Source: Escherichia coli (lineage in GTDB: Bacteria; Pseudomonadota; Gammaproteobacteria; Enterobacterales; Enterobacteriaceae). Taken from it: DNA of 64,000 bases. The position numbers are program-made. The stretch is from the NCBI RefSeq assembly GCF_030013205.1, contig NZ_CP122648.1; one strand, 5' to 3'. Position 1 is the first letter of the stretch, and each line of letters starts with the position of its first letter. Positions 28,301 through 33,926 of the stretch are shown here, piece after piece.

Positions 28301-31300
28301 GAATCGCGTCGATTGCTGGTGAATGCAAATAATGTATTGGCTCGGGTTGAACAAATAGGTCGGGGAGAAGCAGGGCGGATTGAACTCGGGGTTGTGGGAA
28401 CGGCAATGTGGGGACGGATGCGCCCGGTTATGCGGCGATTCCTTAGAGAAAATCCTAACGTTGAAGTTCTGTTTCGCGAAAAGATGCCTGCGATGCAAAT
28501 GGCCCTGCTGGAACGACGTGAACTCGATGCCGGGATCTGGAGAATGGCGACAGAACCACCGGCAGGTTTTACCAGCTTACGGTTGCATGAATCGGCGTTT
28601 CTGGTGGCGATGCCTGAAGAGCATCATCTCTCATCATTTTCCACCGTTCCGCTGGAAGCGCTACGTGACGAGTATTTTGTTACAATGCCGCCCGTGTACA
28701 CTGACTGGGATTTTTTGCAGCGAGTTTGCCAGCAGGTGGGATTTTCACCGGTTGTTATTCGCGAAGTTAATGAACCGCAAACGGTACTTGCCATGGTCAG
28801 TATGGGCATTGGTATCACATTGATAGCGGACAGCTACGCACAAATGAACTGGCCAGGTGTCATTTTCCGTCCGCTCAAACAGCGCATCCCTGCAGATTTA
28901 TATATTGTTTATGAAACACAGCAGGTGACGCCCGCGATGGTTAAGCTGTTGGCTGCATTGACACAGTAGGTGAGGAGACAGGAATTGCCGGAAATAGTAG
29001 TCTGCTAAGTGAAGCGCATCAGGCAATTTCGCAAATCGCAGATAGCAAAAAAGCGCCTTTAGGGCGCTTTTTTACATTGGTGGGTCGTGCAGGATTCGAA
29101 CCTGCGACCAATTGATTAAAAGTCAACTGCTCTACCAACTGAGCTAACGACCCGAAGTGGTGGGTGATGACGGGATCGAACCGCCGACCCCCTCCTTGTA
29201 AGGGAGGTGCTCTCCCAGCTGAGCTAATCACCCACTTCGGTACTTCACATTTTTACAAGAAATTTAGCTGGCGAGAAAGTGGTGGGTGATGACGGGATCG
29301 AACCGCCGACCCCCTCCTTGTAAGGGAGGTGCTCTCCCAGCTGAGCTAATCACCCACTTCTCAATTTCTTGCTACACGGCGGAGACTACATAAAGTAGTT
29401 GGTGGGTGATGACGGGATCGAACCGCCGACCCCCTCCTTGTAAGGGAGGTGCTCTCCCAGCTGAGCTAATCACCCCCGCTGTGTGGAGTCGCATTATAGG
29501 GAGAGTTCAAAATGAGTCAACGCATTTTCTAAAGAAATTGTTCGTTCGTCGTAAATTTAAGCAAGATGATCGCAAAACAGACCGTGTTGCGCAATTTGTC
29601 AACGAAAACAATAATGCGTAAGGTTGCAACCCGAACTACATTGAGGAATCAGGCGGGAGTGATAGAATATCGCCCACTCAATTTTTCCAGGATTTGCCGG
29701 TTGTCGGCATCTTTCTAAACGTAAGGCCATTTCATGAAAATCAAAACTCGCTTCGCGCCAAGCCCAACAGGCTATCTGCACGTTGGCGGCGCGCGTACTG
29801 CTCTTTACTCCTGGCTTTTTGCACGTAACCACGGCGGTGAGTTCGTGCTGCGTATTGAAGACACCGATCTTGAGCGTTCCACGCCGGAAGCTATCGAAGC
29901 CATTATGGATGGCATGAACTGGCTGAGCCTGGAGTGGGATGAAGGTCCGTACTACCAGACCAAACGTTTTGATCGCTACAACGCGGTGATCGATCAGATG
30001 CTGGAAGAGGGCACTGCTTATAAATGCTATTGCTCTAAAGAGCGCCTGGAAGCGCTGCGCGAAGAGCAAATGGCGAAAGGTGAGAAGCCGCGTTATGACG
30101 GTCGCTGCCGCCACAGCCATGAGCATCATGCTGATGATGAACCGTGTGTTGTACGTTTTGCTAACCCGCAGGAAGGTTCTGTTGTTTTTGACGATCAGAT
30201 CCGTGGTCCGATCGAATTCAGCAACCAGGAGCTGGATGATCTGATTATCCGTCGTACCGATGGTTCTCCAACCTATAACTTCTGTGTGGTGGTTGACGAC
30301 TGGGATATGGAAATCACCCACGTTATCCGTGGCGAAGACCATATCAACAACACGCCACGCCAGATCAACATTCTTAAAGCACTGAAAGCGCCGGTACCGG
30401 TTTACGCGCACGTTTCTATGATCAACGGCGATGACGGCAAAAAACTGTCCAAACGTCACGGGGCGGTCAGCGTAATGCAGTATCGTGATGACGGTTATTT
30501 GCCAGAAGCACTGCTGAACTATCTGGTGCGTCTGGGCTGGTCCCACGGCGATCAGGAAATCTTCACTCGTGAAGAGATGATCAAATACTTCACCCTGAAT
30601 GCCGTCAGCAAATCTGCCAGTGCGTTCAACACCGACAAGCTGCTGTGGCTGAACCATCACTACATTAACGCGCTGCCGCCGGAGTATGTTGCTACTCACT
30701 TACAGTGGCACATTGAGCAGGAAAATATCGATACCCGTAACGGCCCGCAGCTGGCTGATCTGGTGAAACTACTGGGTGAACGCTGCAAGACGCTGAAAGA
30801 GATGGCACAGAGCTGCCGCTATTTCTACGAAGATTTTGCTGAGTTCGATGCCGACGCCGCGAAAAAACATCTGCGTCCGGTAGCGCGTCAGCCGCTGGAA
30901 GTGGTTCGTGACAAACTGGCCGCGATTACTGACTGGACCGCTGAAAACGTTCATCACGCTATTCAGGCGACGGCGGATGAGCTGGAAGTGGGGATGGGTA
31001 AAGTTGGTATGCCGCTGCGTGTCGCCGTAACCGGTGCGGGGCAGTCTCCGGCGCTGGATGTTACCGTTCACGCAATCGGTAAGACCCGCAGTATCGAGCG
31101 TATCAACAAAGCGCTGGCTTTTATTGCTGAACGCGAAAATCAGCAGTAATTAGCGCATAAAAGATAAACGGCAGGAGAGATACCCCTGCCGTTTTTTTTA
31201 TCCGGTGCGCCGTAAAACCCCCTCCTTCAGGGCGGGGATATAAGGCGCGGTTTTCCACCTGACCAGGTGTTTGCTGTTGTTCAATGGATTGACGGATGGC

Positions 31301-33926
31301 GGATATTGGCGCACCTCCGCAGCTACTGGCAAAATAGCCAGGACTCCACAAAACGCCTTTGTAGTAATACCTGACTGCAATATCTGGTCGATCTCGTCGC
31401 AGTCACCTACCCGATACGCCTTTGAGGCTGTTTACCAGACTGGATATCGCCAGTTTGGGAGGATAGTTAATTAACAAATGGACGTGATCTGGTTCGCCAT
31501 CCATTTCAACCAGTTCAGCTTCAAAATCAGCACATACATTTGAAAAGTAAGTGCGTAGTTTTTCTGTCGCGTCATGGTCAAAAATCTGGCGTCGGTATTT
31601 GGTGACAAAGACCAGGTGAACAGGCATCAGGAAAACACAATGCCTTCCACGCCGGATATCGGTTTCTTTTTTCATAGACCAAAGTATCATTTGACCTGTG
31701 AAACGATTACAGGCATTTAAATTCCAGTTAAGACCCGGTGGTCAACAGGAGTGTGAAATGAGGCGCTTCGCAGGCGCATGTCGTTTCGTTTTCAATCGTG
31801 CTCTGGCACGTCAGAATGAGAATCATGAGGCCGGTAATAAATACATCCCTTACGGGAAAATGGCTTCCTGGCTGGTTGAGTGGAAAAATGCCACTGAAAC
31901 GCAATGGCTTAAAGATGCCCCGTCACAGCCATTGCAACAGTCACTGAAAGACCTTGAGCGGGCTTACAAAAACTTCTTCCAGAAGCGGGCTGCTTTTCCC
32001 CGATTCAAAAAGCGGGGACAGAATGATGCATTCCGCTACCCGCAGGGCGTTAAGCTCGATCAGGAAAACAGCCGTATTTTTCTGCCGAAACTGGGCTGGA
32101 TGCGCTACCGGAATAGCCGTCAGGTCACGGGTGTTGTGAAAAATGTCACGGTCAGCCAGTCCTGCGGTAAGTGGCACATCAGTATTCAGACAGAAAGTGA
32201 AGTATCAACTCCGGTTCACCCTTCAGCATCAATGGTCGGGCTGGATGCTGGCGTGGCTAAACTCGCCACGCTGTCAGATGGCACAGTCTTTGAGCCTGTA
32301 AACAGTTTTCAGAAAAAACAGAAGAAGCTGGCGAGACTTCAGCGACAGTTAAGCCGCAAGGTCAAATTCAGCAATAACTGGCAGAAGCAGAAACGCAAAA
32401 TACAGCGACTGCATTCCCGTATCGCAAATATCCGCAGGGACTACCTTCATAAAGTCACAACGACCGTCAGCAAAAACCACGCAATGATAGTCATTGAGGA
32501 TTTGAAGGTCAGTAACATGTCAAAGTCAGCAGCGGGTACGGTCAGCCAGCCGGGGCGCAATGTCCGGGCAAAATCAGGTTTAAACCGTTCGATACTGGAT
32601 CAGGGCTGGTATGAAATGCGCCGCCAGCTTGAGTACAAGCAGCTCTGGCGTGGCGGTCAGGTGCTTGCTGTTCCGCCAGCGTACACAAGCCAGCGTTGCG
32701 CGTGCTGTGGTCATACAGCGAAAGAAAATCGCCTGTCACAAAGTAAATTCAGATGCCAGGTATGTGGATATACAGCGAACGCCGATGTAAACGGCGCTCG
32801 TAACATTTTAGCGGCGGGGCACGCCGTTCTTGCCTGTGGAGAGATGGTGCAGTCAGGCCGCCCGTTGAAGCAGGAACCCACCGAAATGATTCAGGCGACA
32901 GCCTGAACGTAGCAGGGAGCCTCGTCATTCAGGGCGTGGAGGATGTCAAGCTGATTCATCTATGTCGAGACGAGCAAGGAAATGACGAATTCCTTCGCGT
33001 GACAAAAATTGCGCAACTTTTTCCTGCTCACTGTGAGTCATGTTGTCTATTGCGCTGATGATTTGCCGATAAGCAGGAGTGCGAATCCCCGGTGCGTATT
33101 CGGCAAGGGGTTCTTCGGCTTCCAGAAGCATCGGCGTGTTATGGAAGGCTGGCGTGTTCTGAATAAACTCGCAAACTTGCGTATCGACCAGAATAAGTCT
33201 GGCACGACCGCCTTTCACGCCGGGAAATTTTTCCGTTTTCCAGCCTTTTTCTCTGATCCAACGGTTAACAGTTTGTTTAGCCACACCGAGGCATTCAGCC
33301 AGTTCTTCGGTGGTCATTTTATTGCGTAATCTTTTCATATTATTTGCTATCGCGAATCCCTAAGCGTTGTAACAATCCGATAATCCCTTCCCGCAGAAGC
33401 AAGGATGTAAACTGTTTTTGTTCAACTGGCGTCATCTCTTTCGCCAGTGTCACCAGCAATACTTCAAGCGGCGCATCACCAGAAAGGGCAGGCGCTTCTC
33501 CCTGACCTTCTGGACGTTCAGCATTGCGAATATATTCACGAACCTGTTCATTGACGTGAACCAGTCGGGCTTTGCCACCCTGGACGCCAGGTTTTGGTGA
33601 CGTTGTCCAGCCTTCCTTGCGTACCCATTTATTAATGGTCTGGCGGCTATAGCCGGTCAGTCTGGCAAGTTCATCTGGCGTCATCCTCTCCTTGAACATA
33701 ACAATTCCCTGAATGTATGTGGGTCTATTAGTAGTTCATTTTATAACACCACTTTACAGGAAACCGTGACATGAATAACTACTGAATGCGAGCGGTTTTC
33801 CAAAATTGTTCATTTGCCTGATTTTTCAGCGATTGAAACTACACGTTGCAATTTGCCGTTGACACATTCGGGCGGAATTCATATGATGCCGCCCGTCAAC
33901 TCGACAAGCTTTACGTGACGGGGCTA

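Follow-up and report, generated by a model that had tools for sequence, protein, structure and literature searches.

Between gltX and yfeD in the Escherichia coli genome of NCBI RefSeq assembly GCF_030013205.1, the minus strand carries a transposase frame that is interrupted by an in-frame TGA and then stays open through the terminator of gltX into the 3' end of that gene. The question raised by this locus is whether the frame marks a recently broken gene, a truncated element, a fusion with gltX or something older. We addressed it in a window of 64,000 nucleotides of contig NZ_CP122648.1, to which all coordinates refer. The region is read as a decayed transposase gene, tnpA, within a known insertion sequence (IS), IS609, of which the copy is complete, with the pseudogene already flagged by RefSeq, and we give this reading a probability of roughly 0.9. 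No evidence contradicting the pseudogene status of tnpA was found. The features that carry the argument are these:

31202-32949, plus strand: IS609 (IS200/IS605 family, IS605 group), complete, 1,748 bp, with the length and ends of the annotated K-12 IS609
31259-31690, minus strand: tnpA pseudogene of a Y1 HUH transposase, start codon through natural stop site, by Pfam, NCBIfam and the Prokaryotic Genome Annotation Pipeline (PGAP)
31622-31624, minus strand: CCT (Pro) at a position where His is nearly invariant (FLMHVHLVF), by alignment
31478-31486, minus strand: HUH motif (His-Val-His), intact, the invariant H64-V65-H66 in the alignment of relatives
31403-31405, minus strand: in-frame TGA in place of Leu (TTA), by translation and alignment with relatives
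31286-31288, minus strand: TCC (Ser) instead of TAC, the catalytic Tyr, aligned with Tyr127 of IS608 TnpA (2a6m, ...VVKQYIENQQ)
31259-31261, minus strand: lost natural stop, CAG (Gln) here and TAG in intact copies (a Salmonella relative and E. coli 503025 and TR01)
31121-31258, minus strand: read-through tail, covering the left end of the element (31202-31258), TTAT, the terminator of gltX and the final 29 nt of that gene

Translation of the minus strand from 31690 to 31121 gives MILWSMKKETD...PDHVHLLINYPP...LKGVSGR, a stop and then LRRDRPDIAVRYYYKGVLWSPGYFASSCGGAPISAIRQSIEQQQ. This agrees with the first-pass annotation of the sequence, which had described the tnpA of an IS605-type element lying in one frame and broken by the TGA at 31403-31405. 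That codon is the sole in-frame stop between the tnpA start and 31121, the next one being the TAA at 31121-31123. When the TGA is bridged, the protein matches the Pfam model Y1_Tnp over its full length (E=1.9e-38) and NCBIfam transpos_IS200 with 136 bits; considering that the whole model is covered, this is a genuine transposase gene and not a chance open reading frame. Proteus, Photorhabdus, Salmonella, Klebsiella, Xenorhabdus and Yersinia have intact relatives with a length of 138 amino acids (143 when counted from the upstream ATG) and an identity of 80-85%, which end in ...IEQQQTP followed by G, S or D. At the position of the TGA every one of them has Leu (VSGRLLRRD), and the E. coli copies lacking the stop have TTA, so the possibility that TnpA naturally ends at this codon, which had been named as an objection, fails. 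The comparisons proposed at that stage were carried out: alignment with intact TnpA placed the expected stop at 31259-31261, and comparison of the gltX-yfeD spacer with the empty K-12 site fixed the junctions.

The element around this gene is complete. It starts with CCGGTGCGCC and ends with GGATGTCAA, and by alignment both termini are identical to those of the IS609 of K-12 MG1655, from which the whole copy differs at 34 of 1,748 positions, all of them substitutions. It encodes a Y1 HUH transposase (PF01797), as a pseudogene, together with a TnpB protein (OrfB_IS605), and it is inserted 3' of a fixed short motif without target duplication, as seen in eight copies at five loci; terminal inverted repeats are lacking, as in the family. 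Since length and termini are the same as in K-12, the left end is complete, and its subterminal hairpin is present; the earlier suggestion that the left end had been lost is therefore not supported. In a genome identical to the window, the PGAP entry for 31265-31690 is that of a pseudogene ('IS200/IS605 family transposase; internal stop; incomplete; missing C-terminus'), adjoined by an intact 'RNA-guided endonuclease InsQ/TnpB'.

The same element occurs in 17 independent complete E. coli genomes with 100% identity over 31050-33050; their source is mostly pig (enterotoxigenic E. coli, ETEC, and O139:H1 strains). A sequencing or assembly error in the window would have to be repeated in all of these genomes over 2 kb, and all four lesions of tnpA recur in independent assemblies, which leaves a negligible chance for an error of this kind.

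Those four lesions are best described by comparison with the intact TnpA of strain 503025. Numbered from MILWS, the window differs from it by His23Pro, Leu96stop, Tyr135Ser and stop144Gln. The HUH metal-binding motif expected of a functional TnpA is there; an uninterrupted frame with its own stop codon is not (TGA at 31403-31405, CAG at 31259-31261), nor is the catalytic tyrosine, although Tyr occupies the place of the Ser in 18 of the 18 aligned relatives. The tyrosine aligned here is the catalytic nucleophile of the TnpA proteins of the IS200/IS605 family. TnpA has a single conserved catalytic tyrosine, which is needed for transposition (PMC10055086). With this residue lost, a bypass of the TGA would still yield a catalytically dead protein, and the window copy is, judging from its sequence, unable to encode an active TnpA. 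The segment beyond the TGA had been called the catalytic-Tyr region, a detail that is wrong in that it has Ser at 31286-31288 where the tyrosine should be. Neither can the TGA be said to separate two otherwise intact halves, given the exchanges of the catalytic Tyr and the nearly invariant His and the loss of the stop.

The loss of the natural stop accounts for the long open frame. It had been stated that the frame remains open to 31121 through the gltX terminator, and suggested that the stop was lost; both points are borne out, with an overlap of 29 nt with the end of gltX and with TAG in the Salmonella relative and in 1,776 E. coli copies against CAG in the window. By this TAG to CAG point mutation the tnpA frame stays open across the left end and the terminator into gltX. 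The read-through passes the left end (QVENRALYPRPEG.GFTAHR), then TTAT, read as Ile, and then the local flank. Up to ...FTAHR/I the tail is identical in every copy with the CAG allele, and from there on it varies with the flank; the differing tails of the E. coli TnpA proteins in the databases are explained by this flank-encoded read-through. The open frame over the gltX terminator is, in this light, the side effect of a common stop-loss allele and not a gene fusion, a truncated element or a recent event. It is probably a by-product that has no function. The idea that the stop loss is universal in E. coli, suggested by six copies, was discarded when the allele search returned the 1,776 copies with TAG. 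Stop-less (CAG) alleles of tnpA, with a tail composed of the left end and the landing flank, have reached several loci, and it is conceivable, though doubtful, that the extended protein is still active.

For the allele search, 55-mers centred on each variant were compared with complete E. coli genomes (5,426), a length at which every 28-base megablast seed spans the variant; 61-mer queries were dropped, as nearby polymorphisms confound exact matching. The resulting counts, which are lower bounds, were:

TGA allele: 3,376 places in 2,728 genomes, with up to four per genome
TTA allele: 6,359 places in 3,896 genomes
TAG allele (natural stop): 1,776 copies in 1,581 genomes
CAG allele (stop loss): 6,903 copies in 4,228 genomes
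Ser allele (31286-31288): 23 places in 23 genomes, almost all of pig-associated strains
Pro allele (31622-31624): 19 places in 19 genomes
C at 31222 (mismatch in the left-end hairpin): 18 places in 18 genomes

These numbers bear on the age of the damage. The first-pass annotation had proposed a recent inactivation by a single nonsense codon between two intact halves; spelled out, this view would have the natural stop and the left end disappear in a truncation next to gltX. It is true that the TGA is the only in-frame stop from the start to 31121 and that the natural stop is missing. However, the element is full length and keeps the left terminus in its canonical form, together with the hairpin, the natural stop disappeared through a point change common to all the CAG copies, the catalytic Tyr and the conserved His are mutated too, and the TGA itself is shared by 3,376 copies at no fewer than two loci, including the K-12 copy at ydcL-ydcO, some of them in elements that differ from that of the window by about 1.3-2%. 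A copy at the same gltX site in 2015C-4136CT1 has the TGA plus a frameshift and differs from the window at 22 of 1,748 positions (1.3%). Given its presence in so many copies, at the K-12 locus and in diverged copies of the same site, the TGA is an old and widely distributed allele, and a recent inactivation is very improbable. The counts of Ser, Pro and left-end C, each taken separately, decrease in this order and fit a stepwise decay within one clade.

An old allele could still have been imitated by recurrence, with TTA changed to TGA independently in this lineage as a local event. This needs a single base change, and the copies of O157:H7 and TR01 at the very same site carry TTA. Nevertheless the identical change is found in all the TGA copies counted, the strains of 2015C type share it at the gltX site, and over the whole element the TGA copies of the window, 2015C and K-12 differ from each other at 22-39 positions, against 37-47 differences from the TTA copies of the gltX site. 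We regard an independent origin as very unlikely.

Another way to explain the frequency of the TGA is programmed recoding, in which UGA-C would be read through at a low level to give a regulated full-length TnpA. About one third of the copies typed at the codon have the TGA, these copies lie at no fewer than two loci, and UGA-C is reputed to terminate weakly in E. coli. Against this, the stop is not conserved in functional homologues: Leu (TTA or CTG) is encoded by intact relatives from five genera and by the majority of the E. coli copies. Substitutions in tnpA look neutral (4 synonymous vs 15 non-synonymous variable codons, about the neutral expectation), TGA copies gather frameshifts and loss of the catalytic residue, and the catalytic Tyr is gone in the window copy. 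An Rfam scan of 30900-33200 detected no recoding element and no curated guide-RNA family. The TGA-bearing IS609 of K-12 never transposed: mutation-accumulation lines yielded 758 new insertions, none of them of this element (PMC5009759). Taken together, we see only a slim chance for recoding. The TGA of the window is indeed followed by C (31402-31405, minus strand); this has no relevance here, the catalytic Tyr being lost, and may matter for those TGA copies that keep it, such as the one in K-12.

Returning to a decayed tnpA in a complete IS609, the following history is proposed. The element would have landed in the 51-bp spacer between gltX and yfeD by 'peel-and-paste', 3' of TTAT and free of duplication. 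The TGA and the CAG are old alleles, present in thousands of IS609 copies at several loci; mobilisation in trans, gene conversion between copies or the two together would have spread them. A small, mostly pig-associated clade may then have acquired Ser, Pro and the mismatch in the left-end hairpin in succession. Genomes identical to the window have one IS609 place each and no second copy, so they hold no donor of IS609 TnpA; with no active TnpA either, the element would now be fixed, immobile and inherited vertically.

Some observations weigh against this reading or soften it. The allele counts are lower bounds because copies with polymorphisms near the variant escape. The contrast in substitutions, in which tnpB has 26 synonymous vs 20 non-synonymous variable codons (Fisher p=0.013 against tnpA), was drawn from 5 copies per gene, that is, a 6-copy alignment minus one indel-bearing copy for each. 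In different strains, moreover, the substitutions of copies at the same gltX-yfeD site form a mosaic, a pattern that suggests either gene conversion from one IS609 copy to another or more than one insertion at this TTAT. The window copy may have arrived already broken, may have decayed in place or may have received the TGA by gene conversion. The states of tnpA at this one site are diverse: intact in TR01, stop loss only in O157:H7 SS NE 1040-1 and PV15-279, TGA with a frameshift in 2015C-4136CT1, and TGA with Ser and Pro in the window. In this sample (5 of the 533 occupied sites) two copies carry TGA and three TTA.

The features at the place of insertion are:

31169-31199, plus strand: intrinsic terminator of gltX, stem CGGCAGG and CCTGCCG with T-run, outside the element and intact
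31198-31201, plus strand: TTAT target motif, immediately before the left end, a position that it has in 8/8 copies at 5 loci
32946-32949, no strand assigned: right terminus TCAA, overlapping yfeD and supplying its stop codon

The stop codon of gltX is at 31147-31149. It is followed by the terminator, whose stem pairs 31169-31175 with 31185-31191 and whose T-run extends to 31199 (DNA fold of -12.3 kcal/mol, z=-6.7); the hairpin is also present at the empty site of K-12. In all of the eight copies, located at gltX-yfeD, ydcL-ydcO, ytfB, yidH and yeaR-yeaQ, TTAT precedes CCGGTGCGCC and there is no duplication. The empty K-12 MG1655 site, with its spacer of 51 bp, reads ...CCTGCCGTTTTTTATTTAT/GCTGATTC (the slash marks the junction, in short TTTTTTATTTAT/GCTG), and the occupied sites read ...TTTAT, IS609, GCTGATTC, so that nothing is duplicated relative to the empty site. 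Elements of the IS200/IS605 family usually insert 3' of a fixed tetra- or pentanucleotide, free of duplication (PMC8612924). The K-12 IS609 at ydcL-ydcO likewise abuts a terminator T-run. Taking into account this mode of insertion, and that TTAT ends the T-run of the gltX terminator, the close fit to gltX is normal; the suggestion that it is unusually tight is not supported. Of the 5,426 genomes, 533 (O157:H7 among them) have the element at the gltX-yfeD site and 4,878 have the empty site. In the window, T-run and target at 31192-31201 read T8AT, while the other occupied sites and the empty K-12 site read T6ATTTAT, a difference of two bases.

On the other side, IS609 sits inside the last sense codon of yfeD (GC/A TAA in K-12, GCT TGA in the window, region 32941-32975), and the overlap between element and gene is 4 nt. 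The length of YfeD and its C-terminus (...DIDESA) are the same in the occupied and the empty site. As the TCAA terminus restores GCT-TGA, the insertion is silent at the coding end of yfeD.

Within the element, the two ends were compared by fold prediction.

31218-31237, plus strand: left-end subterminal hairpin CCCC(C)TCC-TTCA-GGGCGGGG, in which the lineage-specific C at 31222 makes a C.C mismatch
32919-32940, plus strand: right-end subterminal hairpin region, with weak predicted pairing

The left hairpin of the window folds with -10.4 kcal/mol (z=-0.9), and that of the O157 copy, with G at 31222, forms a perfect stem of 8 bp (-14.1, z=-3.0). At the right end a 9-bp stem is predicted for the K-12 version (z=-2.3) and no stem for that of the window (z=+0.7). 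A right-end hairpin destroyed specifically at the gltX site (32922, 32927) was considered and rejected: the T32922/A32927 variant is also found in the element of 503025, whose tnpA is intact, and so need not be disabling; only G32919 is specific to the window.

The second gene of the element, tnpB (insQ), and its predicted guide are located as follows:

31698-32906, plus strand: tnpB/insQ, intact, 402 aa, predicted RNA-guided endonuclease, divergent from tnpA (Pfam, NCBIfam)
32950-32965, plus strand: putative guide portion of the RNA used by TnpB, in the flank adjoining the right end, GCTGATTCATCTATGT, by analogy with ISDra2

TnpB has the domains OrfB_IS605 (E=1.1e-34), Cas12f1-like_TNB (E=2.3e-24) and a helix-turn-helix (HTH) in Pfam, and 388 bits to NCBIfam guided_TnpB. 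Its residues 3-372 align with the TnpB of ISDra2 (8bf8, E=1.7e-56). The protein is full length and keeps the RuvC residues Asp, Glu and Asp (GLDAG, VIEDL, NADVNGARN) and the zinc finger (CxxC...CxxC) in the alignment. The two lineage-specific changes in tnpB, at 32450 and 32513, are third-position and synonymous. Its substitution pattern appears constrained and that of tnpA neutral-looking, so that TnpB seems to outlive TnpA.

In ISDra2 the guide RNA takes about 16 nt from the flank (PMC8612924). By analogy with this and with work on Geobacillus (PMC10055086), the guide RNA here would consist of the tnpB 3' end and the right end, followed by some 16 nt from the flank, GCTGATTCATCTATGT; its target would be the empty site next to TTAT, a motif that may double as the transposon-associated motif (TAM) of TnpB. 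TnpB may thus be the only part of the element that still works, as a predicted RNA-guided nuclease acting on the empty TTAT/GCTGATTC... site. The Rfam scan gave one sub-threshold match, RAGATH-18 at 32833-32876 on the plus strand (25.4 bits vs a gathering threshold of 44.9, E=0.074). It falls within the last part of tnpB, the place at which the scaffold of a TnpB guide RNA is expected.

It is conceivable, although doubtful, that InsQ/TnpB is retained by selection independent of transposition, for example as a TnpA-independent drive or guard against incoming gltX-yfeD alleles with the empty site (TTAT/GCTGATTC...), which it would cut, or in an RNA-guided role for the host. The basis for this is that tnpA is long dead, that there is no second IS609, that tnpB is full length, that its lineage changes are synonymous and that its substitutions across copies look constrained. 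The literature on InsQ and TnpB offered nothing specific to the function of E. coli InsQ, and that on IS609 consisted of inventories and one activity measurement.

The closest known system is the IS609 of K-12 MG1655 (NC_000913 1503161-1504908; yncK/insP pseudogene and insQ), which has the same 1,748 bp, the same divergent tnpA and tnpB, the same TTAT after a terminator T-run, the same TGA and CAG, and an intact tnpB of 402 aa. It lies at ydcL-ydcO instead of gltX-yfeD and, unlike the window copy, keeps the catalytic Tyr and the His, has A and not C at the mismatch of the left hairpin, and has a well-paired right-end hairpin. The copy of 503025 (yeaR-yeaQ, WP_000604942.1) has the same element ends and an intact 143-aa tnpA with Leu96 (TTA), Tyr135 and TAG. 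TR01 (WP_123178535.1) also has an intact 143-aa tnpA, with Leu96 (TTA), Tyr135 and TAG as well, in an element that occupies exactly the gltX-yfeD site of the window between identical flanks; its assembly contains Ns. Both tnpA genes are annotated as ordinary genes. With IS608 of H. pylori and ISDra2 of D. radiodurans, the element shares the Y1 HUH fold of TnpA (E of about 1e-17 to 1e-18 to 2a6m, 2vhg and 2xm3) and duplication-free insertion 3' of a short motif; subterminal hairpins are known from these models, and of them the left one is present in the window copy, weakened by the mismatch, and the stem of the right one is not predicted. The element differs by the target, TTAT and not TTAC or TTGAT, and by a tnpA that is a pseudogene in the window. 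The genes are divergent here, whereas in ISDra2 they partially overlap (PMC8612924).

Functionally the window copy resembles the non-autonomous tnpB-only elements of the IS605 family, having tnpB without a working tnpA, except that its tnpA remnant is full length and recognisable. A tnpB that lacks a working tnpA is what is seen most often in the family, some 75% of tnpB genes having no tnpA in their vicinity (PMC10055086). The copy illustrates how an autonomous IS605-family element turns into a tnpB-only one, with a loss that can be followed mutation by mutation. The decay steps (the old TGA and CAG, then Ser in 23, Pro in 19 and left-end C in 18 genomes) appear to form a clean, datable series and could serve as clade markers for mostly pig-associated strains. 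Beyond a correct annotation the significance is small.

The reverse pattern was observed in the ytfB-yjfZ copy of another E. coli. There tnpB is broken by an 11-bp deletion (element positions 560-570) and is called as 348 aa, and tnpA, free of an internal stop, gives a predicted read-through protein of 204 aa that is present in 2,552 database member sequences.

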